Below, one piece after another: positions 2,222 to 48,783 of a stretch of DNA of 64,000 nt. Position 1 is the first letter of the stretch, and each line of letters starts with the position of its first letter. The stretch is from Squalus acanthias. Taxonomy: Eukaryota. Location: assembly GCA_030390025.1 (NCBI GenBank), contig CM059432.1:72852001-72916000 (forward strand), given 5' to 3'. The position numbers and the translations under genes were made by a program. The notes below the pieces were generated by a model that saw only the letters and a program-made list of their open reading frames with translations, made no database searches and was not told the DNA's origin.

Positions 2222-3885
2222 TCTGAAGCGTTTGCAACCATCTTCAGCCAGAAATGCGGAGTGGGTGATCCATCTCGGCCTCCTCCTGGAGGTCCCCACC
2301 ATCACAGAAGCCAGTCTTCAGCCAATTCGATTCACTCCACGTGATATCAAGAAATGGCTGAGCACACTGGATACAGCAAATGCGATGGGCCCCAAAACTA
2401 GCCGTGCCTCTAGCCAAGCTGTTCCAGTATAGGTACAACACTGGCATCTACCCGACAAGGTGGAAAACTGCCCAGGTATGTCCTGTCCACAAAAAGCAGG
2501 ACAAATCCAATCCGGCCAATTACCGCCCCATCAGTCTACTCTCAATCATCAGCAAGGTGATGGAAGGTGTCGTCGACAGTGCTATCAAGCGGCACTTACT
2601 CACCAATAACCTGCTCACCATTGCTCAGTTTGGGTTCTGCCAGGACCACTCGGCTCCAGACCTCATTACAGCCTTGATCCAAACATGGACAAAAGAGCTG
2701 AATTCCAGAGGTGAGGTGAGAGTGACTGCCCTTGACATCAAGGCAGCATTTGACCGAGTGTGGCATCAAGGAGCCCTCGTAAAACTGAAGTCAATGGGCA
2801 TCAGAGGGAAAACTCTCCACTGGCTAGAATCATACCTAGCACAAAGGCAGATGGTTGTAGTGATTGAAGGTCAATCATCTCAGCCCCAGGGCATTGCTGC
2901 AGGAGTTCCTCAGGGCAGTGTCCTAGGCCTAACCATCTTCACCTGCTTCACCAATGACCTTCCCTCCATCATAAGATCAGAACTGGGGATGTTCGCTAAT
3001 GATTGTACAGTATTTAGTTCCATTTGCAACTCCTCAGATAATGAAGCAGTCCATGCCCGCATGCAGCAAGACCTGAGCAACATTCAAGCTTGGGCTGATA
3101 AGTGGCAAATAACATTCGCGCCACACAAGTGCCAAGCAATGAATATCTCCAACAAGCGAAGGTCTAACCACTGCCCCATGACATTCAACGGCATTACCAT
3201 CGCCAAATCCCCCACAATCAATATCCTCGGGATCACCATTGACCAGAAACTTAACTGAACAAATCACATAAATACTGTGGCTACTAGAGCAGGTCAGATG
3301 CTAGGTATTCTGCGGCGAGTGTCTCACCTCCTGACTCCCCAAAGCCTTTCCACCATCTACAAGGCACAAGTCAGGAGTGTGATGGAATACTCTACACTTG
3401 CCTGGATGAGTGCAGCTCCAACAACACTCAATTAGCTCGACACCATCCAGGACAAATCAGCCCTCTTGATTGGCACCCCATTCACCACCTTAAACATTCA
3501 CTCCTTCCACCACCAGCGTACCATGGCTGCAATGTGTACCATCTACAAGATGCACTGCAGCAACTCGCCAAGACTTCAACAGCACCTCCCAAACCTGCGA
3601 CATCGATCACCTAGAAGGACAAGGGCAGCAGGCGCATGGGAACACCATCACCTCCAAGTTCCCCTCCAAGTCACACACCATCCTGACTTGGAAATATATC
3701 GCCATTCCTTCATTGTCGCTGGGTCAAAATCCTGGAACTCCCTACCTAACAGCACTGTGGGAGTACCTTCACCACTCGGACTGCAGCGGGTCAAGAAGGC
3801 GGCTCACCGCCACTTTCTCAAGGTCAATTAGGGATGGGTAATAAATGCTGACCTTGCCAGCGACGCCCATATCCCAGGGACGAAT
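2222..3885 (+). mobile_element. 5'-truncated LINE, here called family A (CR1/L2-group RT), decayed
   Basis: ORF 2380-3258 with [34 protein letters not shown] and FA(N)D. 3' tail ...aattagggatggg.aataaatgctg.ccttgccagcgacgccca. Confidence 0.92.
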
Positions 3886-4304
3886 ATTTACAAAATCAAT
3901 CTGCGTTATTTTAACCAATATCCATAAACTTGCATGAACAGTTCTTCAAATTTACAAAATTGTATTAAAGCAACAGGCAGTATACAAATATAACGTCAAG
4001 TCAAAATGCAGAACACTACACTAAAATTAGGAAGAGCTATTCCAGTCAGAACAAGGCACGGCAGCAAACAAAAAAAAATGTTTTCTAGCTTTAAGCAGGA
4101 ATCACAATTTATAGCAGATATATTCAAATTGCCAGCTTGTGGCAAACAGTAATTCATTTCCATAGCTATATTTCTGAAGCACAGTTTAAACTATAACTCA
4201 TAGTTAAGGTGTTGAATCTCTTGCTCACTTGTCTTTGTTCAAATAATTAGTAAACAGGGCCACTCAGAGCTGTCACTAAACATCCAACAGGATCAGGAAC
4301 TTAC

Positions 4305-6395: not shown

Positions 6396-9300
6396 AGCGG
6401 AAGAAAAAGGCAGTAAAGATGCGTAATCTTCCCCGCTATGAAATTATCTCCCCACTGGCTGTTTCTCTGCTGAGCTGGGTGACTCATTCGACTAGTTTTT
6501 CTGCTTTGTTGGTTTCTGCTAGTTGCTGTTGTTCCTCTGATGAGCTGGGTGACTCGTTCTACTGGTTTTTCTGCTTTGTTGGTCGCTGGCTTGTGGTTTT
6601 ACATTTTCTCCGCTGCTTCTGATCTACGGTGACCCCCAACTTCGCGTCAACTTCGCCATCATCTCCCTGCACCGCAACTGATTCTCATTACCACGGCAAT
6701 AAACTCCATCCTTCAATGCCCTACCCTTCAAATAGCTTCTGGACTTCACTCGTCTGCTACACCTCTCTCCGAACTTGGACAACAGTTCGTCGATGCTCCA
6801 TGCCGACTCCATTCTACCTATGTCAACGTTTTCCCTCCACGGGACCTCCGACTTTAACTCTGGACTCCCTACTATTGTCACCAACCTATTCTCTGCCACT
6901 ACCAGGAAATATGTAACCCTATAATTGCTACATAACCAGGCCTATGTAACGAGTTTTTCCGTGTCCATTCCCGTGCACATTTTGGCTGCCGCTCTGGACC
7001 CGAGCCGTTCATTTCTATTTCCACTTTTTTCTCCCCCCCCTTTTCTTTTCTTTCTATCCCTCCCTGACCAGTCTCCTGTCGTCATGCCACCCTTCATCTC
7101 TTCTCTCGGATACAATGCCCTCCCAAATCCCTACCCTAACCCTTCCTTACTCTTCAACCTTCCTACTCTCCTGCCGCCATCCCAGGCTTGACGTCCTCTT
7201 AAGCCTACAGCCTCCCTCTGTGTCTCTCTTGGCATCCTCCGAAGGGCTCACCGTGGCACTCGTCGCTGTCTCCTCACAAGTAGCAACCCCAACTTTCCCA
7301 TCAAACTCTCTCACCGACCTTCCCGTCCAGCCTGCGGGGAGGCTAATCTTGCCAATCTCCTCCCCGTCCAACTCACCCCTCCAAGCGCTGACCCTGTGGA
7401 TGTTGGCAGTGAGTCAGTCATCACCGACCCTCTCCACATCTCCCTCCAGAATGTCCGTTCACTTGCGAACAAGGCCCTGACAGAAACTTGGTTGAGGGGT
7501 GATGACGCCTTACCCTCAAATGAAGTCTCCCCGCCTGGCTATACCTTCCACCACTTGCCCCGCTCAGACCGCCGTGGTGGCGGTGTGGCTCTCATCACCA
7601 AATCACACCTTGGTCTGTCCCCCTACTCCTCCGGCACTTTCTCCTCCTTTGAGCATCGCACCTTGTTCCACCCCTCTCACCTCTCATTTAAAATTCTCGT
7701 TCTCTACCGCCCACCCAAGTACGATAAAAATTTATCACCAAGATATCCTCGCTGCTTTCCTCCCTCGGTGATTTCAAACTCCATGTCAATTCACCATGCT
7801 CTTTCTCCTCTGAGTTCACGATCCTCCCTTAATCTCTCCCTCCATGTGAACTCCCCAACCCATATTCACGGCCATCCCCTTGACCTTGCTATCTCTCGTG
7901 GCCTCGCTACTCCCATCGTGTCAATCACAGATAAGGCCATCTCTGACCACTTCCTTGTATCGCTCTCCACCCACATCCCCCTTCCCCCACCCAACCCTAC
8001 TTCCTTCTGTGTCCACCCCTGGAAAAAACTCTCTCCCAATTCTGTTACAACTGCACTTACGAAATCCCAACTGTCCAGCCTTTGGCCCTCCATTCACAAC
8101 ATTTCTGCAGCTACCGAAGTGCTCAACCACACCCTCACCACCATCTTTGATGCCCTAGTCCCGATTAAAACCATTACTCTCTCTTACCCTGGCTGTTCCC
8201 CCTGGTATGGCCCACATCTGCGTTCCCTCAAGTCCAAGGGATGCACACTTGGTTTAGCCATTCACCGCCAGATCTGGCTGGACCACATAAAGCATTATCA
8301 GGTCTCACTCTTGTCTGCCAAAACTGCTCACTATTCCAGGATCATTCTGGAATGCAAAGATAACCCCCGGCTACTATTTTCTACTGCTAACCGTCTTCTT
8401 AAACCCCTCTCCCCTGTCTCCTCCACCTTCACCTCCAACAACAATTGCGAGGAGCTCATGGACTTCTTTGTCTCGAAGATTGAGACCATCCGATCAGCTG
8501 CCTCTGCCACTTCCCTTCCTTCCCCTAGACCACCGGTCCAAATTTCCTCCAAAGATCCCCCCTGCCCTAGCCCTGAACTTGCATCTTTCTCCAGTTTCTC
8601 TCTGATCTCCCCTCTTGATCTCTCCACGCTCATCTTGTCCATGAGACCCACTTCCTGCTCCCTCAACCCTATTCCCACTAAACTGCTGACCACCCAACTT
8701 CCTTTCTGGCTCCCATGCTAGCTGACATTGTTAACGGTTCGCTCTCCTCGGGTACTGTCCCCCTCTCCCTCAAATCGGCCGTCATCACCCCTCTCCTCAA
8801 AAAACCAACCCATAACCCCTCTGTCCTTGCAAACTACCGCCCCATCTCCAACCTCCCTTTCCTCTCCAAAGTCCTTGAACGTGTTGTCGCCTCCCAAATC
8901 CGTTCCCATCTTTCCTGGAACTCCATGTATGAATCCCTCCAATCCGGTTTCCGCCGCTGCCACAGTACCATAACGGCTCTCATCAAGGTCACAAATGACA
9001 TCCTTTGTGACTGTGACAAAGGTAAACTATCCCTCCTTGTCCTTCTCGACCTGTCTGCAGCCTTTGACACTCCATCCTCCTCCAATGCCTCTCCACCATT
9101 GTCCAGCTGGGTGAGACTGCACTCACCTGGTTCCATTCTTATCTATCAAATTGTAGCCAGAAAATCACCTGCAATGGCTTCTCTTCCCACTCCCGAATCG
9201 TTACCTCTGGGGTCCCCCAAGGATCTATCCTTGGCCCCTCCTATTTCTCATCTATATGCTGCCCCTTTGTGACATCATCCGAAAACACAGCGTCAGTTTC

Positions 9301-12300
9301 CACATGTATGCTGATGATACCCAGCTCTACCTCACCACCCCTTCTCTCCACCCCATCCACAGTTTCTAAATTGACACACTGCTTGTCCGATGAGCAGAAA
9401 TTTTCTCCAATTAAATATTGAGAAGACCGAAGCCATTGTTTTCAGGCCCCGCCACAAACTCCGTTCCCTAGCCACCGACTCCATCCTTCTCCCTAGCATC
9501 TGTCTGAGGCTGAACCACACTGTTCGCAACCTTGGTGTCATATTTGACCCTAAAATGAGCTTCCGACAACATATCCATGGCATAACTAAGACCGCCTATT
9601 TCCACCTCCGTAACATTGCCCGTCTCCACCCCTGCCTCAGCTCATCTGCTGCTGAAACCCTCATCCATGCCTTTGTTACCTCTAGACTTGACTATTCCAA
9701 CACACTCTTGGCTGGCCTCCCACATTCTACCCTATGTAAACTTGAGGTCACCCAAAACTCGGCTGCCCATGTCCTATCTCGCACCAAGTCCCATTCACCC
9801 ATCACCCCTGTGCTTGCTGACAATGGTTAAGCAACGCCTCGATATCAAAATTCTCATCCTTGTTTTCAAATCCCTCAATGGCCTCACCCCTCCCTACATC
9901 TGTAATCTCCTTCAGATTTAGTAACAATACTGTGGAAGAGGAATTCCTAAAGTGTATACGGGATGGTTTCCTGGACCAATATGTCGAGGAACCAACTAGA
10001 GATCTTAGACTGGGTATTATCTAATGAAAAGGATTAATTAGCAATCTTGTTGTGCGAGGCCCCTTGGGGAGGAGCGATCATAAGATGATAGAATTCTTCA
10101 TCAAGATGGAGAGTGAAGTAGTAGTTGACTCAGAGATTAGGGTCCTGAATTTAAATAAAGGAAACTACGATGGTATGAGGCGCAAGTTGGCTAGGATGGA
10201 TTGGGGAATGTTACTTAAAGGGTTGACGGTGGATAGGCAATGGCAAACATTTAAAGATCGCATGGATGAACTACAGAATTTGTTCATCCCTGTTTGGCAT
10301 AAAAATAAAACAAAAAAGGTGACTCAACCGTGGCTAACAAGGGAAATTAGGGATAGCATAAGATCCAAGGAGAGGACATATAAATTGGCCAGAAAAAAGC
10401 AGCAAACCTGAGGATTGGGAGCAGTTTAGGATTCAGCAAAGGAGGACAAAGGGATTAATTAAGAGGGGGAAAATAGAGTATGAGAGTAAGCTTGCAGGGA
10501 ACATAAAAACTGACTGTAAAAGCTTCTATAGATATGTGAAGAGAAAAAGATTGGTGAAGTCAAGCGTAGGTCCCTTGCAGTCAGAATCAGGGGAATTTAT
10601 AATGGGGAACAAAGAAACGGCAGACCAATTAAATACATACTTTGGTTCTGTCTTCACAAAGGAGGACACAAATAAACTCCCAGAGATGTCGGGGAACATA
10701 GGGCCTAATGAGAGGGAGGAACTGAATGAAATCAGTATTTGTAGGGAAATGGTGTTAGGGAAATTGACGGGATTGAAGGCCGATAAATCCCCAGGGCCTG
10801 ATAATCTACATCCTAGGGTACTTAAGGAAGTGGCCCTAGAAATAGTAGATGCATTGCTGGTCATCTTCCAAAATTCTATAAACTCTGGAACAGTTCCCAT
10901 GGATTGGAGGGTAGCTAATGTAACCCCACTATTTAAAAAAGGTGGTAGAGAGAAAACGGGGAATTATAGACCGGTAAGCCTGACATCGGTAGTGGGAAAA
11001 ATGCTAGAGTCCATTATAAAAGATGTAATAGCAGAGCACTTGGAAAACAGTGACAGGATCGGACAAAGTCAACATGGATTTACGAAAGGTAAATCATGCT
11101 TGACTAATAAACTGGAATTTTTTGATGATGTAACTGGTAGAATAGATAAGGGAGAACCAGTGGATGTGGTGTATTTGGACTTTCAGAAGGCTTTCGATAA
11201 GGTCCCGCATAAGAGATTAGTGTGCAAAGTTAAAGCACATGGGATTGGGGGTAAGGTATTGACTTGGATAGAAAACTGGTTGGCAGACAGGAAGCAAAGA
11301 GTTGGAATAAACAGGTCTTTTTCAGAGTGGCAGGCAGTGACTAGTGGGGTACCGCAGGGATCGGTGCTAGGACCCCAGTTATTCACAATATATATTAATG
11401 ATCTAGACGAGGGAACTAGATGTAATATCTCCAAGTTTGCAGACGACACAAAGCTGGGTGGGCGTGTGTGCTGTGAGGAGGATGCAGAGAAACTCCAGTA
11501 TGATTTGGACAGGTTGGGTGATTGGGCAGATGCATGATAATGTGGATAAATGCGAGGTTATCCACTTTGGTGGCAAAAACAGGAAGATAGATTATTATCT
11601 GAACGGCAATAGATTGGGAAAAGGGGAAGTGCAACGAGACCTGGGTGTCCTTGTGCACCAGTCGCTGAAGGTAAGCATGCAGGTGCAGCAGGCGGTTAAG
11701 AAGGCAAATGGTATGTTGGCCTTCATAACGAGAGGATTCGAGTACAGGAGCAAGGATGTCTTGCTGCAGTTGTACAGGGCCTTGGTGAGACCACACCTTG
11801 AGTATTGTGTGCAGTTTTGGTCGCCTTATCTGAGGAAGGATGTTCTTGCCATGGAGGGAGTGCAGCGAAGATTCACCAGACTGATACCTGGGATGGCAGG
11901 AAGGACGTATGAAGAGAGATTGGGTCGATTAGGCTTATATTCGCTAGAGTTTAGAAGAATGAGAGGGGATCTCATTGAAACTTATAAAATTCTAACAGGA
12001 CTAGACAGACTAGATGCAGGAAGGCTGTTCCCGATGGCGGGGGAGTCCAGAACCAGGGGTCACAGTCTAAGGATAAGGGTTAAGCCATTTAGGACTGAGA
12101 TGAGGAGGTATTTCTTCACCCAGAGAGTGGTGAACCTGTGGAATTCTCTACCACAGAAGGCAGTTGAGGCCAATTCATTAAATATATTCAAGAAGGAGTT
12201 AGATATATTTCTTAAGGCTAAGTGGATCAAGGGATATGGGGAGAAAGCAGGGACAGGGTACTGAATTTGGATGATCAGCCATGGCGGAGCAGGCTCGAGG

Positions 12301-13949: not shown

Positions 13950-14910
13950 GTCCCCCAGGATCCCCCTCACCGCCCACCAGGATCCCCCTCACCGATCCCG
14001 GGACCCCGCTCACCGACCCTGGGACCTCCCTCACAGCCCACCCCGGGATTCACCGACCCCGGGGCTCACCCCTCACCGCTCACCCCCGCGATCCCCCTCA
14101 CCACCCACCAGGATCCCCCTCACCGCCCACCCCCGGGATCCCCCTCACCGCCCACCCCCGGGATCCCCCTCACCGCCCACCCCCGCGATCCCCCTCACCG
14201 TCCCCAGGATCCCCCTCACCGCCCACCCCCGCGATCCCCCTCACCGTCCCCCAGGATCCCCCTCACCGCCCACCCCCGCGATCCCCCTCACCGCCCACCG
14301 GGATCCCCCTCACCGCCCACCCCCGCGATCCCCCTCACCGCCCACCCCCGCGATCCCCCTCACCGTCCACCCCCGCGATCCCCCTCACCGTCCACCCCCG
14401 CGATCCCCCTCACCGTCCACCCCCGCGATCCCCCTCACCGTCCACCCCCGGGATCCCCCTCACCGCCCACCCCCGCGATCCCCCTCACCGCCCACCCCCG
14501 GGATCCCCCTCACCGCCCACCCCCGCGATCCCCCTCACCGCCCACCCCCGGGATCCCCCTCACCGCCCACCCCCGGGACCCCGCTCACCGATCCTGGGAC
14601 CTCCCTCACAGCCCACCCCGGGGTTCACCGACCCCGGGGCTCACCCCTCACCGCCCACCCCCCACCCCCGGGACCCCTTCACCACAGCCGCACCTGACCC
14701 AGCTCACTCCCCCCCCCACCCCCAGGATCCTCCTCACCACCCCTCTCCAGGTCACTAGGTCACCCCCTCACCGTCCACCCCCAGGAAGCCGCCTCACCGC
14801 CCACCAGGACCCCCCTCACCTCGCCCGCGCCGGACCCTCACCCAGTTCACCCCCACCCCCAGGATCTTCCTCACCACCCCTCTCCGGGTCACTAGGTCAC
14901 CCCCTCACCC
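13950..14910. repeat. GC-rich 25-bp minisatellite (CCCCGGGATCCCCCTCACCGCCCAC)n
   Basis: Period-25 repeats are directly visible, most homogeneous at 14100-14580. Confidence 0.97.
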
Positions 14911-15210: not shown

Positions 15211-15492
15211 CAGCAGAGACACTCCCACAGGAGCCAGCAGGAATACAGACCAGAGACACTCCCACAGGAGCCAGCAGGAATACAGACCAGAGACACTCCC
15301 ACAAGAACCAGCAGGAATACAGACCAGAGACACTCCCACAAGAACCAGCAGAAATACAGACCAGAGACTCTCCCACAAAAACCAGCAGGAATACAGACCA
15401 GAGACACTCCCACAAGAACCAGCAGGAATACAGACCAGAGACAATCCCACAGAAAGGGCACAGACCAGAGGCACTCCTATAGGAACCAGCAG
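15207..15492. repeat. 37-bp minisatellite (ACTCCCACAGGAGCCAGCAGGAATACAGACCAGAGAC)n, homogeneous block
   Basis: Unit starts at 15221, 15258, 15295 and so on (period 37). Confidence 0.97.
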
Positions 15493-15501
15493 GAAAGGGA
15501 A

Positions 15502-15939
15502 AGGATTTGCATTTATACAGCGCCTTTCACAACCTCAGGACGTCCCAAAGTGCTTTACTTTTGAAGTGTCACTGTTGTAATGTAGGAAACGTGACAGCCA
15601 ATTTATTCACAAGCTCCCACAAATAACAATGTGATAATGACCAGATAATCTGTTTTAGTGATGTTGATTGAGGGATAAATATTGGCCAGGAGACCGTGGA
15701 TAACTCCCCTGCTCTTCTTTGATATAGTGCCGTGGGATCTTTTACATCCACCTGAGAGAGGAGGTGGGGCCTCGGTTTAATGTCTCATCTGAAAGATGGC
15801 ACCTCTGACAGTACAGCACTCCCCCAGTACTGTACTGGAGTGTCAGCCTAGATTTTTGTGCTGAAGTCTCTGGAGTGAGACTTGAACACACAACCTTCTG
15901 ACTCAGAGGCGAGAGTGCTACCAACTGAGCCATGGCTGA
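15502..15939 (-). mobile_element. Deu-domain tRNA-derived SINE (SacSINE1-like) with L2-type tail
   Basis: Minus strand: tcagccatggctcagttggtagcactct (A box), gttcaagtc (B box), central ...tttcagatgagacattaaaccgaggcccc...caggtggatgtaaaagatccca..., tail gtgaaaggcgctgtataaatgcaa. Confidence 0.85.
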
Positions 15940-16392
15940 ACCAAGACTGAGAGCGACATTCCCACAGGAACCAGCAGGGACATAGACTACAGCAACACTC
16001 CTACAGGAACCAGCAGGGGTACAGACCCAGAAAGACACTCCGACAGGAACCAGCATAGACACAGACTGAGAATTACACCCACAGAAACCAAAGGCACTCC
16101 CACAGAAACCTGCAGGGCACAGACCTAGGAACAAGAGTAGGCTATTCGGCCCCTCAAGCCTGTTCTGCCATTCAGTTAGGTCATGGCTAACCTGTATCTC
16201 AACTCCATTTACCCAGACCCATTTATAGATACTCCCATAGGATCCAGCTGCAAACCAAAGACACACAGGACCCAGCAGGTACTGAAATGAGAGACACACC
16301 CACAGGAACCAGCAGGGACAGACCAACAGACACTCCCATAGGAACCAGCAAAGATAGAGAGTGAGACACTCACACAGGAACCAGCAGAGGCA
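15940..16392. repeat. Degenerate continuation of the 37-bp array, with a CR1 tail fragment at ~16126-16215
   Basis: Recurring cactcccacaggaaccagcag cores. Confidence 0.85.
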
Positions 16393-17400
16393 CAAGTTCA
16401 GCGATTTTTTTTTTTTATTCGTTCATGGGATGTGGGCTTCACTGGGGAGGCCAGCATTTATTGCCCTTGATAAGGTGGTGGTGAGCCGCCTTCTTGAACC
16501 GCTGTAGTCCATGTGGTGAAAGTACTCCCATAGTGCTGTTAGGGAAGGAGTTCCAGGATTTTGATCCAGCAACGATGAAGGAACGGCGATATACTTCCAA
16601 GTCAGGATAGTGTGTGACTTGGCGGGGAACTTGGAGCTGATGGTGTTCCCTAGCGCCTGCTGCCCTTGTCCTTCTAGATGGAAGAGGTCACGGGTTTGGG
16701 AGATGCTGCCGAAGAAGCCTTGGCGAGTTGCTGTAGTGCATCTTGTAGATGATACACACTGCAGCCACGGTACGCCGGTGGTGGAGGGAGTGAATGTTTA
16801 AGGTGCTGGATGGGGTGCCAATCAAGCGGGCTGCTTTGTCTTGGATGGTGTCGATCTTCTTGAGTGTTGTTGGAGCTGCACTCATCCAGGCAAGTGGAGA
16901 GTGTTCCATCACACTCCTGACTTGTGCCTTGTAGATGGTGGAAAGGCTTTGGGGAGTCAGGAGGTGAGACACTCGCCGCAGAGTACCCAGCCTCTGACCT
17001 GCTCTTGTTGCCACAGTATTTATGTGGCTGGTCCAGTTAAGTTTCTGGTCAATGGTGACCCCCAGGATATTGATGGTGGGGGATTCGGCGATGGTAATGC
17101 CGTTGAATGTCAAGGGACGGTGGTTAGACACTCGCTTGTTGGCGATTGTCATTGCTTGGCACTTGTGTGGCGCAAATGTTACCTGCCACTTATAAGCCCA
17201 AGCCTGAACGTCGTCCAGGTCTTGCTGCATGCAGGCATGGACTGCTTCATTATCTGAGGAGTTGCGAATGGTACTGAACACTGTGCAGTCATCAGCGAAC
17301 ATCCCCACTTCTGACCTTATGATGGAGGGAAGATCATTTATGAAGCAGCTGAACATGGTTGGGCCTAGGACACTGCCCTGAGGAACTCCTGCAGCGATGT

Positions 17401-19204
17401 CATAGAGTTACACAGCACAGAAAGAGGCCCTTCGGCCCATCGTGTCCACGCCGGCCATCAAGCCCTGTCTATTCTAATCCCATTTTCCAGCACTTGGTCC
17501 GTAGCCGTGTATGCTATGGCGTTTCAAGTGCTCATCTAAATGCTTCTTGAATGTTGTGAGGGTTCCTGCCTCTACCACCCTTTCAGGCAGTGCGTTGCAG
17601 ATTCCAACCACCCTCTGGGTGAAAAAGTGTTTCCTCAAATCCCCTCTAAACCTCCTGCCCCTTACCTTGAAACTATGCCCCCTGGTTATTGACCCCTCTA
17701 CTAAGGGATAGTTCCTTTCTATCTACCCTATCTATGCCCCTCATAATTTTGTACACCTCAATCAGGTCCCCCCTCAGCCTTCTCTGTTCTAAGGAAAACA
17801 ACCCCAGCCTGTCCAGTCTCTCTTCATAGCTGAAGCGCTCCAGCCCAGGTAACATCCTGGTGAATCTCCTCTGCACCCTCTCCAATGCAATCACATCCTT
17901 CCTATAGTGTGGCGACCAGAACTGCACACAGTATTCCAGCTGTGGCCTAACTAGCGTTTTGTGCAGCTCCATCATAACCTCCCTGCTCTTATATTCTATG
18001 CCTCGGCTAATGAAGGCAAGTATCCCATATGCCTTTTTAGCCACCTTATCTACCTGTCCTGCTGCCTTCAGGGATCTATGTACATGCACACCAAGGTCCC
18101 TCTGATCCTCTGTCCTTCCTAGGGTCCTACCATTCATTGTGTATTCCCTTGCCTTGTTAGTCCTCCCAAAATGCATCACCTCACACTTTTCAGGGTTAAA
18201 TTCCATTTGCCACTGTTCTGCCCATCTAACCAACCCGTCTATATTGTCCTGTAGCCTGAGGCTTCCCTCCTCACTATTTATCACTCCACCAATTTTCGTG
18301 TCATCTGCGAACTTACTGATCATACCTCCTACATTCATATCTAAATCATTAATGTACACTACAAACAGCAAAGGACCCAGCACCGATCCCTGCGGTACAC
18401 CACTGGACACAGGCTTCCAGTCACAAAACAACCTTCGACCATCACCCTCTGCCTCCTGCCACTAAGCCAATTTTGGATCCAATGTGCCAAATTGCCCTGG
18501 ATCCCATGGACTCTTACCTTCTTGACCAGTCTCCCATGCGGGACTTTGTCAAAAGCCTTACTGAAGTCCATGTAGACTACATCAACTGCACTACCCTCAT
18601 CCACACACTTAGTCACCCCCTCGAAAAATTCAATCAAATTGGTTAGACATGATCTCCCCCTGACAAAGCCATGCTGACTATCCTTGATTAATCCTTGCCT
18701 CTCCAAGTGGAGACTAATTCTGTCCCTCAGAATTTTTTCCAATAATTTCCCTACCACTGATGTTAGGCTCACTGGCCTGTAATTCCCTGGTTTATCCCTA
18801 CTACCCTTCTTGAATAATGGTACTATGTTAGCTGTTCTCCAGTCCTCTGGCACCTCCCCTGTGGCCAGAGAGGTTCTGAAAATTTGTGTCAGAGCCCCTG
18901 CAATCTCCTCCCTTGCCTCACACAGCAGCCTGGGATATATCTCGTCTGGGCCTGGGGATTTATCCACTTTTAAGCCTGCTAAAACCGCAATACCTCCTCC
19001 CTCTCAATACTAATTTGTTCAAGTATATCACAATCCCCCTGCCTGATTTCTATGACTACATCGTCCTTCTCCATAGTGAACACAGATGCAAAATATTCAT
19101 TTAAAACCTCACCTACATCTTCCGGCTCTACACACAGATTGCCACTTTGGTCCCTAATGGGCCCTACTCTTTCCCTGGTTATCCTCTTGCCCTTAATATA
19201 CTTA
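17401..19204 (-). mobile_element. CR1 LINE, 5'-truncated, nested in LINE A
   Basis: ORFs 17673-18431 and 18359-18967 with [27 protein letters not shown] and RPQLEYCVQFWSP. Confidence 0.95.
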
Positions 19205-19933
19205 TCCTGGGCCTGTGATGATTGACCTCCAACCACCACTACCATCTTCCTTTATGCTAGGTATGACTCCAGCCAATGGAGAGTTTTCCCTCCAATTCCC
19301 ATTACTTCAGTTTTACTAGGGCTCCTTGATGCCACACTCGGTCAAATGCTGCCTTGATGTCAAAGGCAGTTACTCTCACCTCACCTCTGGAATTCAGCTC
19401 TTTTGTCCATGTTTGGACCAAGGCTGTAATGAGGTCAGGAGCTGAGTGGTCCTGGCAGAACCCAAACTTGGCATCAGTGAGCAGGTTATTGGTGAGTAAG
19501 TACTGCTTGATAGCATTGTCGATGACATCTTCCATCACTTTGCTGATGATTGAGAGCAGACTGATGGGGCGGGAAATGGCCGGATTGGATTTGTCCTGCT
19601 TTTTGTGGACAGGACATACCTGGGCAGTTTTCCACATTGTCGGATAGATGCCAGTATTATAGCTGTACTGGAACAGCTTGGCTAGAGGCGCGGCTAGTTC
19701 TGGAGCACAAGTCTTCAGCACGATAGCCTTTGCTGTCTCCAGTGCACTCAGCCATTTCTTGATATCACGCAGAGTGAATCGAATTGGCTGAAGACTGGCT
19801 TCTGTGGCCCTCAGGTGTAGGCCGATATGGATCATCCACTCGGCCTTCTGGCTAAAGATGGTTGCAAACGCTTCAGCTTTGTCTTTTGCACTCACGTGCT
19901 GGGCTCCACCATCATTGAGGATGGGGATATTCA

Positions 19934-22229
19934 CAATCTGGCCTCACAACCAGCCTGACAACTCCCAGTGATTCAGAGACACAGAGTGTCCACAGCGCCT
20001 GGTCTGCACTCAAGGCCTCCACAATCAGCACCTGTGAAGAGACGCTCGGTCACTCGACCAGGAAACACCAAGACTGATTCGATGAGAATGACCAGGAGAT
20101 CCAGGAGCTAATAAGCCGCAAGCGCAAGGCAATCCTGATCTGGAAACAGCAACACAACTCAAGAACAAGAAAGCAGCTCTACAGACGCCTGAAGGCCAAG
20201 GTCCAACAAAAAACTCGTGACCTAAAGAACAGATGGTGGGTGGAGAACGCGCAGGAGATCCAGCAGCTAGCTGACAAACACAACATGCATGGATTCTTTA
20301 GCGCAGTCAAGACCACCTATGGCCCAAGCACCCAAGGTCCTACCCCACTGCGGGCCAAGAACGGAGAGGTACTCATCAAAGACAGAGAGGCAGTCAGTGC
20401 CCGCTGGAAGGAGCACTTCGAAGATTTCCTTAACCGAGACTCTGTCTTCGACGCGAGTGTCCTCAACTCCATCCCATAGCATGCTACCCGCCAGCACCTC
20501 AGCACAACCCCAGCCCGGCATGAGGTAGAAAAAGCCATCCCACAACTGAAGAACAACAAGGCCTCAGGAGCAGACGGAATCCCCGCCGAGGCACTAAAGC
20601 ATGGTGGAGAAGCACTATTGGCGTGAATACATGAACTCATTTCTCTTATTTGGAAGAGCATGCCAGGAGATCTCAGAGACGCCGTAATCGTGACCATCTT
20701 CAAGAAAGGTGACAAGTCCGATTGCGGTAATTACAGAGGAGTTTCCCTGCTGTCTGCCACAGGGAAAGTCATCGCAAGAATTCTCCTCAATCGCCTTCTC
20801 CCAGTGGCTGAAGAGCTCCTCCCAGAGTCGCAATGTGGATTCCGCCCACTAAGGGGCACAATGGACATGATCTTCACCGCGCATCAACTACAAGAAAAAT
20901 GCAGGGAACAGCACCAACCGCTGTACATGGCCTTCTTTGACCTCACAAAGGCCTTCGACACTGTCAACCATGAGGGATTATGGAGTGTCCTCCTCAAATT
21001 CGGCTGCCCTCAAAAGTTTGTCACCATCCTCCGCCTGCTTCATGACGACATGCAAGCCGTGATCCTGACCAACGGATCCACCACAGACCCAATTCACATA
21101 CGGACCAGGGTCAAGCAAGGCTGTGTCATCGCACCAACGCTCTTCTCGATCTTCCTTGCTGCAATGCTCCATCTCACCCTCGGTAAGCTCCCCGCTGGAG
21201 TGGAGCTAATCTACAGAACAAACGGGAAACTGTTCAACCTCCGTCGCCTCCAGTCCAGATCCAAGGTCATCGAATTACAGTATGCAGATGACACTTGCGT
21301 CTGCGCACACTCGGAGGTCGAACTCCAAACCATCGTCAACACCTTCACCGAAGCGTACGAGAGCATGGGCCTTACACTAAATATTCGTAAGACAAAGGTC
21401 CTCTACCAACCTGCCCCCGCCACACAGTACTGCCCCCCCAATTATCAAAATCCACAACGAGGCCTTGGACAACGTGGACCACTTTCCATACCTCGGGAGC
21501 CTACTGTCAACAAGGGCAGACATCGATGACGATGTCCAACACCGCCTTCAGTGTGCCAGTGCAGCCTTCGGTCGCCTGAGGAAGAGAGTGTTTGAAGACC
21601 AGGACCTCAAACCCGGCACTAGGCTCATGGTCTGCAGAGCAGTAGTAATACAGCCCTCCTGTATGCCTCAGAGACATGGACCATGTACAGCAGGCACCTC
21701 AAAACACTGGAGAGGTACCATCAACGCTGCCTCCGCAAGATCCTGCAAATCCATTGGCAGGATAGGTGCACCAACGTCAGTGCTCTCGCTCAGGCCAACA
21801 TTCCCAGCATCGAAGCTCTGACCACGCTCGATCAGCTCCGATGGATGGGCCACATCGTCTGCATGCCTGATACGAGACTCCCAAAACAAGCGCTCTACTC
21901 GGAGCTCCGACACGGCATGAGAGCCCCAGGTGGGCAGAGGAAATGCTTCAAGGACACCCTCAAAGCCTCCTTGAAAAAATGCAACATCCCCACCGACACC
22001 TGGGAATCCCTGGCCCAAGACCGCACAAACATCCGGGAAGGCGTCGAACACCTCGAGTTTCTTCGCCGGGAGCCAAGCGCAAACAGTGGAAGGAGCGCAC
22101 ATCAACCCAAGCATTCCCACCGTCTGCCCCACCTGTGAAGTCCCGCATTGGTCTCATTGCTCACCTGAGAACTCATTTTTAGTGTGGAAGCAAGTCATCC
22201 TTGGTTCCGAGGGACTGCCTAAGAGAGAG
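19934..22229 (+). mobile_element. RTE-clade LINE, 5'-truncated, nested in LINE A, apparent TSD ATTCA
   Basis: Motifs NYRGVSLL, ESQCGFR, AFFDLTKAFDTV, KQGCVIAPTLF, YADD, FPYLGS and LRWMGH..M...RLPKQ. ATTCA at 19929-19933 and 22230-22234. (GA)n end. Confidence 0.93.
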
Positions 22230-23896
22230 ATTCATTGAGCCTCCTCCTCCCATTAGTTGTTTATTGGTCCACTACCATTCACGACTGGATGTGGCAGGAC
22301 TTTGATCTGATCCGTTGATTGTGGAATTGCTTCGCTCTGTCTGTAGTATGCATGTAGTCCTGTGTTGCAGCTTTCCCAGGTTGGCACCGCATTTTTAGGT
22401 ACACCTGGTATGCTCTTCTACACTCCTCATTGAACCAGGAGTTGTTCCCCTGGCTTGATGGTAATGGTAGAGTGAGGGATATGCCAGGCCATGAGGTTAC
22501 AGATTGTGGTGGAATACAATTCTGCTGCTGCTAATGGCCCACAGCACCTCGTTTTGAGCTGCTAGATCTGTTCTGAATTTATCCCATTTATAGTGCCACA
22601 CAACACGATGGCAGGTGTCCTCGGTGTGAAGATGGGACTTCATCTCCACAATGACTGTGCAGTGGTCACTGTCACCAATGCTGTCATGGACAGATGCATC
22701 TGCAACAGGTAGATTGTTCTCTCAACACCTGCTGCAGGCCTAGTCTGGCAGTTATGTCCTTCAGGACTCGGCCACTAGTGGTGCTACCAAGCCACTCTTG
22801 ATGATAGACAATGAAGTCCCCACCCAGAGTACATTCTGTGCCCTTGCTACTCTCGGTGCTTCTTCCAAGTGGTGTTCAACATGGCGGAGTACTGATTCAT
22901 CAGCTGAGGGAGGGCAGTAGGTGGTAATCAGCAAGTGGTTTCCTTGCCATGCCTGATCTGAAGCCATGAGACTTCATGGGGTCTGGAGTCAATGTTGATG
23001 ACTCCCAGGGCCACTCCTTCCTGTATACCACTGTGCTGCCATGATGATGATGGAGGAGGAGTTTGGGACATTGGCTGAAAGGTATGATTCTGTGATATGA
23101 CTTTGTCAGGCTGTTGTTGGTGAGGAGGACTTTGCAGGGTCTGGGCTGGGTGTGCCATTGTTGTGTTCGTAGCTGGTGCCAAGGTCAGTGCCAGGTGGTC
23201 CAGTTTTATTCTTATTGTTTTTCATAGCGGGTTTTTACAACTGAGTGGCTTGTGAGGGCAGTTAAGAGTCAACCACATTGCTGGTCTGGAGTCACATATA
23301 GGCCAGACCAGGTAATGACAGCAGATTTCCTTCTCTAAAGGACATTAGTGAACCAGATGGGTTTTTAACAACAATCTGATAGTTTCATGGTCACCATTAC
23401 CAATACTAGCTTTTTATTCCAGATTTATTTAATTAACTGAATTTAAATTCCCCAGCTGCCGTGGTGGGATTTGAACTCACATCTCCGGATCATTAGTCCA
23501 GGCCTCTAGGATTACTAGTCCAGTAACATAACCACTATGCTACCGTTCCCTATAAACACTAGATACACAAGAATCAGCTGCAAAACAGAGAGGCACTCTG
23601 GTAGAAAGCAGCAGACATTGCTATAGGAACCAGCTGCAAATCTGACACTCCAACAGGAGATACAGACCCACAGACACTCCCACAAAAAGCAGCAGATACA
23701 CAGCTAAGAACTCACAGGGGCACACTGTCCCACAGAAACCAGTAGAGACACAATCCCTGAGACATCCCCCAGGAATTAGCAGGTGACAGACCGAGACACT
23801 CCACAGGATCCAGCAGAGACACTGACTGAGAGAGACATTCCCACAGAAACTGACAGAGCAAAGACCCAGAAGACACAGCCACCGGAACCAAGAGAG

Positions 23897-27389: not shown

Positions 27390-27744
27390 CAAACGCAGCA
27401 GCCAATTTGTGCACAGCAAAGCCCCAAATCAACAGTGAGATAAACGACCAGATAATCTGTTTTAATGATGTTGGTTGAGGGATATATGTTAGCCAGGACA
27501 CCAGGAGAACTCCCCTGCTCTTCTTCAAATAATGCCATGGAATCTCTTACATCCACCTGAGAGAGGAGACGGGGCTTCATTTTAACATCTCATCCAAAAG
27601 ACAGCACCCTGACAGTGAAGCATTCCCTCAGTACTGCACTGAAGTGTCAGCCTGGATTATGTGCTCAAGTCTTGAGAGTGGAGCTTGAACCCATGACCTT
27701 CTGACTCAAAGGTGAGAGTGCTATCACTGAGCCAAGGCTGACAC
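27390..27744 (-). mobile_element. Deu-domain SINE (SacSINE1-like), tail truncated
   Basis: Homologous to 15590-15939. Confidence 0.85.
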
Positions 27745-28123: not shown

Positions 28124-29016
28124 TGGGGCAAAATTCAGTATCGCCCCATTTGGGGCACAATTATCGGCCGGGCGCAAAGATTAGCGCCTGGCGCTAATTA
28201 TCGCCTCCGACTGCAAACTTGGCTCTTATCGCCCCTGGAGGTGATTGGAGCGCTAAATCAGGTGCTTCACACCTGTCTTAAGGCGCAAAATCCGAGGAGC
28301 GAGGCGCTACCTCAGAGCACTGGCGAAGCTCATGTGATGTCAGTCAGCAATAGAACAGAGACACAATGGCGCCGGCCAGTTCTTAAAGGGAAGGGTTGAT
28401 CTTGCTCTCCATCCACATCCTGCTTATTGCAGCCTTGAATCTCGGCCTGGAGAGACCTGTACATCAAATCTGCTGGAAAGAACAATGGAGAGAACCAGGG
28501 AAAGAGCTCAGAGTGCAGCCCCCACAGTCTCTTCTAAATAGATGCAAGGAAGGGCAAATCAAAATGAACCTGCAAAGTGCAGCTCAGTACCCAAAACTCC
28601 TTCACACAGCGTTGAATCTCTCCAGAAGTCTCTCTCTCTCTCTCTCAGAATGCGTGGTGCAAAAATGTCACCAACAAAAAAAGGCAGGAAGCGTTCGCCT
28701 TTAAATAGCACTCCCCCAGTCCCTTCCTGACTGCAAAACGCTCCCCTCAACCTGTCGTTGCTAGCGGCAGGCGGTAAGGCAGGGGGCGCCACTCAATATC
28801 CGCTCCGGGGCGCTACCGGGGCGTTGCGCACTCCACTGACGTCACGATCTGCCGCCGCAGGAGATCGTGGCGGTAGTGTTTAGCGCCGCCGCAAAATATC
28901 TAGTTAATTTCGCGAGCGGCACAAACATCGCCGCGCCCGGGCGCTAGATGCTTTGCGCCCCATTAGCGCCCTCTTAAGGTGCTAACGGGAGGCGCAACCA
29001 ACTGAATTTTTCCCCC
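28124..29016. mobile_element. Non-autonomous Harbinger-type element (~0.89 kb), TSD TAT
   Basis: TIR (G)GGGG(C/A)AAAATTCAGT. TAT at 28121-28123 and 29017-29019. The CR1 sequence resumes exactly across it. Confidence 0.92.
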
Positions 29017-31955
29017 TATATGTTTCAATAAGATCCCCTCTCATTCTTCTAAACTCCAATGAGTATAGGCCCAACCTGCTCAACCTTTCTTCATAAGACA
29101 ACCCTTTCACCTCCGGAATCAACCTTGTGAACCTTCTCTGAACTGCCTCCAATGCAAGTATATCCTTCCCTAAATAAGGAGACCAAAACTGCACGCAGTA
29201 CTCCAGGTGTGGTCTCACCAACACCCTGTACAGTTGTAACAGGACTTCCCTACTTTTATACTCCATTCCCTTTGCAATAAAGGCCAACACTCCATTTGCC
29301 TTCCTAATTAATTGCTGCACCTGCATGCTAACTTTTTGTGATTCATGTACAAGGACCCCCAGATCCCTCTGTACCTCAGCATTTTGTAATCTCTCCCCAT
29401 TTAAATAATAATTTGCTTTTTTATTTTTCCGACCAAAGTGGATAACCTCGCATTTTCCCACATTAAACTCCATCTGCCAGATTTTTGCCCACTCACTTAG
29501 CCTATCTATATCTCTTTGGAGATTCTTTGCGTCCTCCACACAATTTGTTTTCCCACCTATCTTTGTATCATCAGCAAATTTGGCTACATTACACTCGGTC
29601 CCTTCATCCAAGTCATTAATATAGATTGTAAATAGTTGAGGCCCCAGCACTGATCCCTACGGCACCCCACTAGTTACAGTTTGCCAACCTGAAAATGACC
29701 CATTTATCCCGACTCTCTGCTTTCTGTTAGTTAGCCAATCCTCTATCCATGCTAATATATTACCCCCAACCCCGTGAGCTCTTATCTTGTGTATTAACCT
29801 TTTATGTGGCACCTTATTGAATGCCCCTTTATCCACCCTGCTCGTTACATCCTCAAAGAGCTCCAGCAAATTTGTCAAACATGGTTTCCCTTTCATAAAA
29901 CCATGCTGACTCTGCTTGACTATATTATGATTTTCTAAATGTCCTGCTACCACTTCCTTAATGATGGACTCCAGCATTTTCCCAATGACAGATGTTAGGC
30001 TAACTGGTCGATAGTTGCCTGGTTTCTGTCTCCTTCCTTTCTTAAATAGGGGCGTTACATTTGTGGTTTTCCAGTCCGCTGGGACCTCTCCAGAATCTAG
30101 GGAATTTTGGTAGATTACAACCAATGCATCCACTATCTCGGCAGCCACCTCTTTTAAGACTCTAGGATGCAGGCCATCGGGTCCAGGGGACTTGTCTACC
30201 TTTAGTCCCATTAGTTTGCCTAGTACTTTCTCTCTAGTGATAGTGATTGCTTTAAGTTTTCCCCCCCCCCCACCACCCCAATTGCCCCTTGATTATCCAT
30301 TATTGGGATGCTTTTAGTGTCTTCTACCGTGAAGACAGATACAAAATATTTGTTCAAAGTCTCCGCCATTTCCGTTTCCCATTATTAATTCCCCAGACTC
30401 TTCCTCTAGGGGATCAATGTTTACTTTAGCTACTCTCTTTCTTTTTATATACCTGTAGAAGCTCTTACTGTCTGTTTTTATATTTCTTGCTAGCTTACTC
30501 TCATAAGCTATCTTCTCTGTATCATTTTTTTAGTCGTCCTTTGCTGGTTTAAAAAAAATTCCCAATCCTCTGGCCTTCCACTATTCTTCACAACATTGTA
30601 TGCTTTTGTTTTCAATTTGATACCATCCTTTACTTCCTTAGTTAGCCACGGATGGTTCATCCTTCTCTTAGAGTTTTTTTTTTCTCTGGAATATATCTTT
30701 GCTGAGAGTTATGAAATATCTCCTTAAATGTTTGCCACTGCTTTTCTACAGTCTTACCTTGTAATATATTTTCCCAGTCCACTTTAACCAAGTCTGCCTT
30801 CATACCTTTGTAATTACCTTTATTTAAATTCAGGACACTAGTTTGAGACCTAGCTTTCTCACCCTCAAACTGAATTTGAAATTCTACCATGCTATGATCA
30901 CTCTTCCCAAGAGGATCCTTCACTTCGAGATCATTAATTAATCCAGCCTCATTACACATTACCAGATCTAAAATAGTCTTCTCCCTGGTTGGTCCCACAA
31001 CGTATTGTTCCAAGAAACCATCCCTTATACATCTAAGAACTCTTCCTCAAGTCTACCTTTGCCAATTTGCTTTGCCCAATCAATATGAAGATTAAAATCT
31101 CCCATGATTATAGCCGTACCTTTCTTACAAGCCTCTATTATTTCTTGATTTATACTCTGTCCTACAGTGTGGTTACTGTTTGGGGGCCTGTAGACCACTC
31201 CCACCAGTAACTTCTTACCCTTATTATTTCTTATCTCCACCCAAACTGATTCTATGTCTTGATCTTCTAAGCCAATATCATTTCTCATTACTGCGCTGAT
31301 CTCATCCCTTATTAACAGAGCTACACCACCTCCTTTTCCTTTCTGCCTATCCTTACGAAATGGCAAATACCCCTCAATATTCAGTTCCCAGCCTTGGTCA
31401 CCTTGCAACCACGTCTCTGTAATGGTTATCAGATCATACCCATTTATTTCTATTTGTGCTGTCAACTCATCTATCTTGTTACGAATGCTGCGTGCGTTCA
31501 GATATAGAGCTTTTAATTTTTGTCATTTTACCATTTTACCCTACTCTGACCCCTCTTTCTGATGCACTCTTATGTGTATACGCTCTGTCCCTTCCTGTCA
31601 CACTCTGGTTATCATTACCCCTATCGCTACCCTGCACTTTTGCCTTCTCATTTTTCTTTGACATTTTTAATTTCCGCTCAGCGTATCCCTCCCCCCCCCC
31701 CCCCCCCACTATTTAGTTTAAAGCTCTATCTACAGCCCTAGTTATTTGATGCGCCAGGACACTGGTCCCAGCCTGGTTCAAATGAAGCCTGTCCCGATGA
31801 AACAGCTCCCTCTTATCCCAGTACTGGTGCCAGTGCCCCAAGAATCGAAACCCATTTCTCCCACACCAATCTTTGAGCCAATCGTTCATCTCTCTGATCT
31901 TATTGACCCTATGCCAATTTGCACGTGGCTCAGGCAGTAATCCAGAGATTATTAC

Positions 31956-35289: not shown

Positions 35290-38200
35290 AAATTCTATCA
35301 GAGTCCTAGCGGAAAGGATACATAGGGCTGTGGATAGGACTTTAAACTCGTCAGAAGTGGGGAGGGATCTGTCAGAAATAACAAAAGCCTGAAGATAAAA
35401 GAAATAGGAGATGAGAGGAAAGGTGAGATCAAGGTAAAGAATAAGGATGACATAAACAGTCAGGGAACAGATACAGTTACAGACAAAAGTATAAAATGAC
35501 GGTTAAAAATAAAGTGAGAGGAACGGTTAATATAAACAAATTAAATTGCACACAGCATCTGTAACAAAACAGGGGAACTGGAGGCAATAATTTGTAGTGA
35601 GGAGCCAGATGTAGTGGGGATAACAGAAACATGGCTACATAAAGAACAAGTCTGCAGGATATAACTTATTTAGAAAAGATAGGGAAGGAAGAAGGAGGGG
35701 ATAGGAGAGCTGTACTAATTAGAGATAACATAATGGCAGTTAAAAAAGGGACATAACTAAAATTAAGATAGAAATAGAATCCATATGGATTGAGATAAAG
35801 GATAAAAAGGGATCAATCATGCTAATAGGGATATTCTACAGATCACCTAATAGTGGAAGGAAGTGGAGGAAGAAATATGTAAGCAAATCTATGAAATGAG
35901 TAAAAGACATAGGGGGAAAAATTCAGTTGGTTGCGCCTCCCATTAGCGCCTTAAGAGGGCGCTAATGGGGCGCAAAGCATCTAGCGCCCAGGCGCGGCGA
36001 TGTTTGCGCCGCTCGTGAAATTAACTAGACATTTTGCGGCGGCGCTAAACACTACCGCCACGATCTCCTGCGCCGGCAGATCGTGACGTCAGTAGAGTGC
36101 GCAATGCCCCGGTATCGTCCCAGAGCAGATATTGAGTGGCGCCCCCTGCCTTACCGCCTGACGCTAGCAACGACAGGTTGAGGGGAGCGTTTTGCAGTCA
36201 TGAAGGGACTGGGGGAGTGCTATTTAAAGGCGACCGCTTCCTGCCTTTTATTGTTGGTGCCATTTTGAACCACGCATTCTGAGAGAGAGAGAGAGAGACT
36301 TCTGGAGAGATTCAACGCTGTGTGAAGGAGTTTTGGGTACTGAGCAGCACTTTGCAGGTTCATTTTGATTTGCCATTCCTTGTATCGATTTAGAAGAGAC
36401 TGTGGGGGCTGCACTCTAAGCTCTTTCCCTGGTACTCTCCATTGTTCTTTCCAGCAGATTTGATGTGCAGGTCTCTCCAGGCCGAGATTCAAGGCTGCAA
36501 TGAGCAGGATGTGGATGGAAAGCAAGATCAACCATCCCCTTTAAGAACTGGCCAGCGCCATTGTGTGTGTGTTCCATTGCTGACTGACATCACATGAGCT
36601 TCGCCAGCGCTCTGAGGTAGCGCCTCGCTCCTCGGCCTTTGCGCCTTAAGACAGGTGTGTAGTGCCTGATTTAGCGCTCCAATCACCTCCAGGGGCGATA
36701 AAAGTCAAGTTTGCAGTCGGTGGCGATAATTAGCGCCAGGCGCTAATCTTTGCGCCCGGCCGATAATTGCGCCCCAAATGGGGCGATACTGAATTTCTCC
36801 CCCATAGAATAATAATCATGAGAGACTTCAATTAACCCCAAATAAACTGAAAAGAAGAGGTAGGGAAAGGGGAAAAGGGAATGGAGTTTTTAAGAGTATG
36901 TAAGAAGCCCAACCAGAGAGGAATCACTGCTGTATCTAGTAATGGAAAATGAACAAGAGCAGATAAGATAAGGGAAGTAAATGCAGGGGAACATCTAGCT
37001 AATAGTGGTCATAGCATAATAAGGTTTAAAATAATGACTGAGAAAGACATAAGTAAGACAAAGACCAAAGTAATAGATTGGAGAAAAAAAGGCTAATTTT
37101 GATGGAATGAGATTGGAACTAGGGAAGGTAAACTGAGGAAAAAATCTGACAGACGAAGAGATAGAACAGCAGTGGAAAATATTTTAAAAGGTGATCAATA
37201 GAGTTCAGGAGAAATATATTCTGCTAAAAAACAAGAACAAACTAGTGAAACATCATGGATGAATAAAGAGATAAGGGTAAAATTGAAACTAAAGAAAAAG
37301 ACATACACTAAGTATATAAAGAATAAAGGAGAGGATAACAAAAGGGAGTGTGAAGAGGTTAGGAAATAAGTTAAAAAAAACAATAAGGAAAGCAAAGAGC
37401 AACTACAAAGTTAAATTATCAAGAAATATAAAAATAAATAGTAAAGTATTCTACAGACACATAAATAACAAAAGAGAAATCAGGACAGGGACAGGGCCAC
37501 GATGGAATGTAGAAGATAAACTCACAGGTAGTGACAGCGAAATGGCAGAAATATTGAATAGTTACTTTGCCTCAGTATTTACCAGGGAGACTAACAACGT
37601 GGACAAAACATTAGAAGAAGAGATTATAAAAGATATAAAGACATTTAAGATAGAAAGGGGGGAGATAATTGATAAACTTATCAAACTTAGGGAGGATAAA
37701 ACCCCTGGTCCGGATGGAACGCATCCCGCATATTAATAGAAGTTAGGGAGCAGATAGCAGAGGCACTATTATATTTATATAAAAATTCATTCGAAAAGGG
37801 AATAATGCTAGAGGGACAGCTAATGTTATTCGTATATTTAAAATGGGAGATAGAACAAATCCAGGGAATTATAGACCAATTAGCTTAATGTCAGTGTTAG
37901 GAAAGATAATGGAATCTGTACTCAAAGATGTAATAAAAAAACAACTAGAAACCAAAAATATAATAAAGAATAGTCAGCGCGGATTTCAAAGGGTAAGGTC
38001 ATGCTTGACCAACCTTATTGAATTCTTCGAAGAAGTAACAGAAAGAGTAGATAAAGGTAATGCAGTATATGTAATATATTTGGATTTTCAAAAGGCTTTT
38101 GATAAGGTACTGCATAGTAGACTCATGACTAAGGTCAGAGCATGTAGAGTCAGGGGGAAAGTAGCAGAATGGATAGCAAGCTGGCTATAAAACAGAGAGT

Positions 38201-48467: not shown

Positions 48468-48783
48468 ATCTTTTTTTTATCACAGGCTGTTGGCTGTTTA
48501 AAGTTAAGCATGTGCCCCTACAACAAATAAAGACTGTAAATTAACAACAAAGGTTAAAGGAAACTTAACAAATTAAATTAAAATATTGTTCCTTGCGGTG
48601 ATGATGCACTTCAGTCCCTGCGGTGCCCAGCGGTCACGGAAGGCCTCAAGCGTGCCGATGGACACCGCGTGCTCCATCTCCAGGGCCACCCGGGCGCGAA
48701 TGTAGCCACGGAAGAGAGGCAGGCAGTCGGGCCGAACGACCCCCTTGACCGCCCGCTGCCTGGACCTGTTGATGGCCATCTTG
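48468..48783 (-). mobile_element. 3' end of an L1/Tx1-like LINE (ORF2 C-terminus, 3'UTR, A-tail)
   Basis: KMAINRSRQ...FRGYIRARVALEMEHA....FRDRWA resembles L1/Tx1 ORF2 C-termini. The long TSD and A-tail fit the L1 clade. Clade assignment is from memory. Confidence 0.65.

Follow-up and report, generated by a model that had tools for sequence, protein, structure and literature searches.

The DNA considered here, a 64,000-nucleotide window from Squalus acanthias, the spiny dogfish (assembly GCA_030390025.1, contig CM059432.1, positions 72,852,001 to 72,916,000), contains a long interspersed nuclear element (LINE) that begins with a tRNA-like head of the type carried by short interspersed nuclear elements (SINEs). 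This element, LINE A, runs along the minus strand from 23550 to 16405 and measures 3,050 bp net after removal of a nested CR1 and a nested RTE-type LINE. A sequence-only reading of the window had ended it at 23546; a tRNA-like head does stand there, with the true start four bases farther out at 23550. Judged by its sequence, LINE A is a decayed, twice-interrupted copy of the elasmobranch CR1-Zenon family. It has a single frame for an apurinic endonuclease (APE) and reverse transcriptase (RT) without a separate first open reading frame (ORF1), it ends in a run of 12 A residues at 16416-16405, and its 5' 400 nt match the dogfish consensuses SquAca_Zenon-1, -2 and -3. A poly(A) tail is described as unique to Zenon among CR1-group elements, and ORF1 as missing from all Zenon elements, in the available portions of PMC13343379; the lack of ORF1 that had been singled out earlier is thus real in LINE A but nothing special to it. 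Published consensuses (supplement of PMC13343379) were compared over their first 400 nt only and by eye, which applies to all such comparisons below. The closest protein matches are labelled as shark (Cetorhinus and Pristiophorus, 73-78%), and the 3' part of the RT is 44-50% identical to its best 16 full-length or partial relatives. In an RT tree of 29 rows, built without a named Zenon reference, LINE A was separate from the window's canonical CR1s and grouped with single-ORF relatives, two crustacean-labelled proteins among them (fork support 91/90, unstarred).

The coding region is in pieces but in order. A degenerate APE domain and ORF2 linker with frameshifts and deletions (22227-23133, minus strand) was recognized by tblastn, the PF14529 match being weak and below cutoff (E=0.003). 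It is followed by the ORF2 linker and 5' part of the RT (19205-19933; RVT_1 positions 5-91; 88% to a copy at 2223-2890) and by the 3' part of the RT with the ORF2 C-terminal region (16439-17401; RVT_1 positions 117-205), both on the minus strand. The 3' tail (16405-16470, minus strand) holds AATAAA signals at 16462-16457 and 16419-16414, a small stem-loop, which folded no better than shuffles (z=-0.97), and the terminal poly(A). One interruption, at 19934-22226, is a LINE fragment in the opposite orientation (plus strand) with TGAAT duplicated at its ends, an RVT_1 match (E=9e-40) and a place far outside the CR1 rows of the tree; we take it to be RTE-type, as the earlier reading did. The other is a 5'-truncated canonical CR1 (17402-19204, minus strand) with an RVT_1 match and a separate clade in the tree. 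That LINE A is collinear through both insertions, as had been proposed, is borne out on three counts. With full-length relatives as queries, tblastn tiles kept the order APE (22827-22411), RT 5' (19934-19210) and RT 3' (17404-16466); a second, 5'-truncated copy of the same LINE at 2223-3886 (plus strand, 88%, copy 2) is unbroken at the CR1 site; and contigs from all four public runs, among the matches listed, pass over the CR1, joining 17399 to 19205, and over the RTE, joining 19928 to 22230. At the 5' end the APE motif KVLLTN, at 23133, is no more than about 420 bp from 23550. A search of this interval for ORF1 found none, the longest ATG-started frame beginning upstream of 23200 having 39 codons, and the earlier statement that neither a target-site duplication (TSD), an A-tail nor room for an ORF1 lies between head and APE holds. 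The same minisatellite of 36-40 bp units lies on both flanks of LINE A, which fits a single insertion into an array; no TSD was found around the whole element. The array occupies 15214-15495, 15944-16389 and approximately 23560-23880, broken up by a SINE and by LINE A.

The head itself (23460-23550, minus strand) shares its start with the SquAca_Zenon-1 consensus, is bordered behind 23550 by many unlike flanks in contigs of one public run and has a weak match to the Rfam tRNA model. The A box, TAGCATAGTGG, lies at 23532-23542 and the B box, AGTTCAAATCC, at 23467-23477 (minus strand; read with a preceding G from 23478), exactly where they had been placed before. Theirs is the only A plus B pair on either strand of the window, against 0.02 pairs per shuffle in 100 local shuffles. 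Between the boxes are an anticodon-like arm (23507-23523, minus strand; loop CTAGTAA, anticodon AGT for Thr), the 3' strand of which is mutated in LINE A, and an extra hairpin before the T arm (23485-23501, minus strand) that in this subtype nearly repeats the anticodon arm. The anticodon is AGT in the consensuses of four of five species and ATT in whale shark; in three other sharks the stem of the extra hairpin is of another sequence but still pairs. Across the elasmobranch consensuses of five species both boxes change only at degenerate positions and the spacer has indels, while the B-box 10-mer is present in six of the seven. The rest of the 5' region is conserved about as well as the boxes, so we count box conservation as modest evidence. 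The Rfam tRNA model scored 20.7 bits (E=0.22) against 23543-23463, short of the gathering score of 29, and ARAGORN called no tRNA in the LINE A head; both are expected of a derived head. Minimum-energy folding of the LINE A head likewise gave no cloverleaf and a stability not above that of shuffles (z=-1.06). At the level of sequence, a head of RNA polymerase III (Pol III) type is established. LINE A thus has the feature that defines SINE2 elements, A and B boxes inside a 5' head related to tRNA, with the Rfam score below the gathering threshold. It does not have their short (100-700 bp), non-coding, non-autonomous form, being 3,050 bp net with an APE-RT, although the short derivatives described below would fit that form.

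One explanation for such an arrangement is that a SINE happened to insert beside LINE A, or that the LINE inserted site-specifically into a SINE. The lack of a TSD delimiting the whole of LINE A would suit this. However, no SINE remainder follows the poly(A), a single minisatellite borders both ends, and the truncated copy at 2223-3886 has unrelated flanks. Above all, the family consensuses have the head. The same A box, Thr(AGT)-like arm, B-box region and body open all seven elasmobranch Zenon consensuses of PMC13343379 (2,886-3,314 characters; Zenon-1 of CarCar, white shark, RhiTyp, whale shark, ScyCan, catshark, and HypSab, stingray, together with the three SquAca consensuses of spiny dogfish), the Zenon elements of these five elasmobranchs being more than 84% alike (PMC13343379, in part). 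SquAca_Zenon-1 has the same first bases as LINE A at 23550 and a 78-nt run identical to it. Among about 1,000 consensus rows in the supplement, six B-box 10-mers occur in just 6, each an elasmobranch Zenon. In one of the four public runs, 652 contigs among the matches listed end loosely behind 23550 with an agreement of 0.33, that is, with many unlike flanks and one boundary. The intact-ORF2 table of PMC13343379 has denominators of 59 to 2,313, which we read as counts of long copies. Full-length copies elsewhere that were headless or had variable junctions would have spoken for a chance neighbour; the opposite was found, and the headed consensuses refute this almost certainly mistaken account. 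Since the consensuses of five species begin with the head and contig flanks diverge at 23550, the head is, by these comparisons, the 5' end of the family, and chance adjacency is excluded. The suggestion that a SINE-type head belongs to the family as its own 5' untranslated region (UTR) is therefore upheld by published consensuses and public contigs alike.

A further possibility is that the protein-coding unit is a headless Zenon and that headed full-length copies are recurrent template-switch chimeras with an abundant SINE RNA. Chimeras of LINEs with small RNAs are well known, 21 tRNA/L1 chimeras being reported in human (PMC13174262, in part), and short head-bearing forms do exist in the dogfish. 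Yet the human chimeras are rare, half-length and mostly antisense, as given there, whereas the junction of head, body and APE is the same in all seven consensuses and the head differs by species as the LINE does. We regard this explanation as very improbable. The head and body belong, with the single APE-RT frame and the poly(A) tail, to one retrotransposing unit, which is present in five species.

Outside elasmobranchs the head was absent from the first 400 nt of all three other Zenon consensuses inspected in the supplement (two hagfish, one coelacanth), and butterfly Zenon is likewise headless, judging from the account of Persaeus in PMC6740152. As other Zenon lineages lack it, this suggests that the head was gained in the elasmobranch line, either from a SINE or directly from a tRNA. 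The main text of PMC13343379 contains no match to tRNA, promoter or polymerase III, and the head is present in its supplement without being described there. No description was found by literature searches or in the accessible parts of a set of shark papers (PMC1513397, PMC2746220, PMC5499810, PMC10468316, bioRxiv 10.1101/443036) and of a set of SINE papers (PMC4824008, PMC11481361, PMC7245038, PMC3747384), although Repbase, Dfam, subscription literature, bioRxiv supplements or the Zenodo consensus file may hold one. While the loss of ORF1, the poly(A) tail and the formation of short internally deleted elements (SIDEs) are already known for Zenon, its tRNA-type head is real, family-wide and apparently unremarked so far.

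Behind the head lies a 5' UTR body (23226-23459, minus strand) that is common to the short derivatives discussed below and is neither a Meta nor a Deu domain. Membership of the MetaSINEs, prompted by the Thr anticodon, was rejected when the 19-nt start of the 66-bp Meta domain (consensus from the supplement of PMC7245038) had no match in the window at three mismatches. Membership of the DeuSINEs (SacSINE1) was rejected as well, the Deu 16-mer matching at 15727-15742, 52142-52157 and weakly at 27532-27547, all outside LINE A, and a self-BLAST of the head having no match at the Deu-motif places in the window. A motif of the body had no matches in the viral and prokaryote collections scanned. The body ends at an AUG at 23225, the last before the APE and kept in the consensuses of five species, which opens a short frame (23106-23225, minus strand) at +1 to the APE frame and overlaps an Arg-rich ORF2 leader; the offset of one base is the same in LINE A and in the stingray consensus. 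Up to 23225 the leader contains nine ATGs, of which none continues into the APE frame in LINE A. The Arg-rich leader in the APE frame resembles that of relatives, with no AUG in view. Since the APE frame lacks an AUG in view and the AUG at 23225 is off frame, translation of ORF2 probably depends on initiation at a non-AUG codon, on a frameshift or on re-initiation, as far as a degenerate copy and a by-eye reading of consensuses can indicate. The longest ORF2 in the elasmobranch Zenon table (supplement of PMC13343379) is 324-747 amino acids, compared with about 950 in relatives. Decay explains such short calls; a missing AUG ahead of the APE would likewise shorten them.

Vertebrate Pol III terminates at runs of at least four T on the sense strand. 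Base shuffling predicts 5.0 such T4+ runs in 3,034 bp of LINE A, which has none (P=0.005), while its A4+ runs are normal in number (14 against 15.2). The ratio of observed to expected TTT was 0.40 in LINE A and 0.44 in copy 2, compared with 0.75-1.54 in six further LINEs of the window. An older copy related to LINE A has a ratio of 0.73 and also no T4+ run in 1,054 bp (3.2 expected). As background only, distant relatives were taken as the best 80 of 409 metagenome loci from one of 64 parts scanned, at most 43% identical to LINE A; the 34 of these 80 with an ORF of at least 500 amino acids all contain T4 runs (682 observed, 523 expected). No sense-strand A plus B pair and no BLAST match to the head was found among these best 80 loci. 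The T-run deficit points toward Pol III without settling the matter, and is suggestive only.

We lean, with modest confidence, towards a head that recruits Pol III to make a 3.3-kb protein-coding RNA. The proposed course of events would begin with a template switch through which an ancestor of the elasmobranch family gained a 5' end, either tRNA-Thr-like or that of a SINE. TFIIIC would bind the A and B boxes, transcription would start at the first base of the head, and Pol III could read through owing to avoidance of T runs in the coding strand. The uncapped RNA would be translated cap-independently, probably from a non-AUG start, and its 3' tail would be recognized by ORF2 for target-primed reverse transcription; internal deletions sparing both ends could then yield ready-made SINE-like elements. 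Taken as a whole, that is, as an autonomous, protein-coding vertebrate retrotransposon with a 3.3-kb mRNA that Pol III makes from a tRNA-type promoter within the element, that has been cleared of terminators and is translated cap-free from a non-AUG codon, kept since the split of sharks and rays and providing SINE partners by single deletion, this is a tentative proposal to which we would give a little less than an even chance.

Several observations weigh against transcription by Pol III. Pol III RNA is uncapped and seldom translated. The T4+ deficit weakens when dinucleotides are kept (0 against 2.3 expected, P=0.086), under a synonymous shuffle of 530 codons (0 against 2.6, P=0.036, weaker than the base shuffle) and in copy 2 (0 against 1.9, P=0.11). 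The comparison ORFs are mostly T-richer than LINE A, the nested RTE is T4-poor as well (one run in 2,266 bp), the family prefers C-ending codons, and its copies are not independent. Conservation covers the whole 5' UTR and not the boxes alone, and the stingray consensus is one C short in the B box. SINE length, 100-700 bp, has been ascribed to a limit of Pol III processivity (PMC10886601, in part). A lesser though substantial possibility is that the head is the 5' end of the family but that RNA polymerase II (Pol II), starting in the body or in upstream genes, makes the coding RNA, the boxes being kept for another role. As part of this explanation, they could act as a TFIIIC barrier to silencing, support a tRNA-like fold that aids translation or processing, or be held by constant exchange with short forms driven by Pol III. 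LINEs are in general transcribed by Pol II (PMC5786205 and PMC10886601, in part), the two AATAAA signals and the poly(A) of LINE A suit that polymerase, and both the non-significance of the T4 deficit with dinucleotides kept and the degenerate stingray B box agree with it. Less easily accommodated are the strand-specific shortage of TTT and T4 over the coding region, a part that the short forms lack, the beginning of the element at the tRNA +1 position, and the nine out-of-frame or stopped ATGs, which make the leader poor for cap scanning. Of the two, transcription by Pol III is the reading that we prefer.

Short forms related to LINE A have several distinct junctions. The body at 23254 is joined to the tail at 16498 in all four public runs (1, 4, 4 and 1 contigs, among the matches listed). 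A second head copy (63675-64000, plus strand; 170 bp, 86%), ended by the window edge, is fused to the 3' coding end of the LINE at 63837/63839 with 2-3 bp of microhomology. An old short form (47850-48045, minus strand) consists of a partial head, body, and then tail and A-rich end, with body joined to tail at about 47900. There is also an old body copy from the B box onward (55495-55754, minus strand; 77%). These short forms are built like a SIDE, in which the partner LINE has lost its middle and its two ends are fused, and the variety of junctions agrees with internal deletions that arose more than once from a headed LINE. The best reading is that the headed LINE sheds SINE-like deletion derivatives. 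In contig depth, head and tail stood above the APE in one run, whose RNA status is guessed, and the head was like the APE bins in the three other runs; contig depth cannot rank the parts and so gives no measure of expression or of the SINE:LINE ratio.

The nearest known system is the elasmobranch CR1-Zenon of PMC13343379, as far as its supplement extends, with which LINE A has in common the first bases, head, body, absence of ORF1, poly(A) and a length of about 3.3 kb, and from which it differs in being degenerate and twice interrupted. In Lepidoptera, too, a Zenon LINE yields short elements that have lost its interior but keep both of its ends and the poly(A), namely the SIDE Persaeus (PMC6740152, in part); Persaeus, however, is described there as having no tRNA homology or Pol III promoter, whereas the shark LINE and its short form are both headed by a tRNA-like sequence. 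SINE2 elements, including shark SacSINE1 (Deu), HE1 (V) and MetaSINEs with a tRNA-Thr-like head, resemble LINE A in A box, anticodon-like arm, B box, body and LINE-type tail, but the LINE A family encodes an APE-RT, is 3.3 kb long and has a body that is neither Meta nor Deu. Partial precedent is provided by RTE-1_DAn and relatives, LINEs with a tRNA-like sequence matching many SINE2 elements; these belong to the RTE clade, and the match was set aside as accidental in PMC5786205 (in part). The bipartite SINEs Bov-tA, CoeSINE4 and SINE2_Gav (PMC5786205) and the TRIMp3 elements Cassandra and Helenus (PMC10886601), as treated in the available portions of these papers, similarly place a small-RNA head on parts of a LINE or long terminal repeat element. 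There the head is found only on the non-coding short element, the autonomous partner being taken as a Pol II unit, whereas shark Zenon has it on the autonomous element.

The working rule that LINEs are transcribed by Pol II, and SINEs, length-limited and non-coding, by Pol III is directly tested by a high-copy headed family across five shark and ray orders. If Pol III does make the RNA, it would be a multi-kilobase mRNA that this polymerase produces naturally, and it could serve to model both cap-independent translation and the evasion of silencing directed at Pol II. Whichever polymerase is used, deletion of the middle of a headed LINE would give a SINE in one step, unlike the head addition to a bipartite LINE that has been proposed.

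Other repeats were noticed in the window. Further LINE copies lie at 8700-9800, 9970-12165, 29000-31600 and 37721-38900, two of which cluster with canonical CR1 in the tree. An old Zenon-like copy at 48100-50560 (minus strand) is 69-80% identical to LINE A in pieces, with several insertions and an unrecognizable 5' end. Inside it, a full-length tRNA-like sequence (48943-49015, minus strand; Rfam tRNA 41.3 bits, above threshold), presumably Val-like, is followed by unrelated sequence and has the look of a tRNA retrocopy. Just beyond the 3' flank of LINE A is a tRNA-headed SINE with the Deu-domain motif (approximately 15600-15945, minus strand), which we would call SacSINE1-like; a second match to the motif, at 52142-52157, is on the plus strand. 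A C-rich tandem array of 21-25 bp units extends over 13953-14820. Finally, a basking shark gene model for an isoform of 3'-5' exoribonuclease 1 contains a piece of the LINE A RT (78% over 38% of the query), either by exonization or as an artefact of the gene model.

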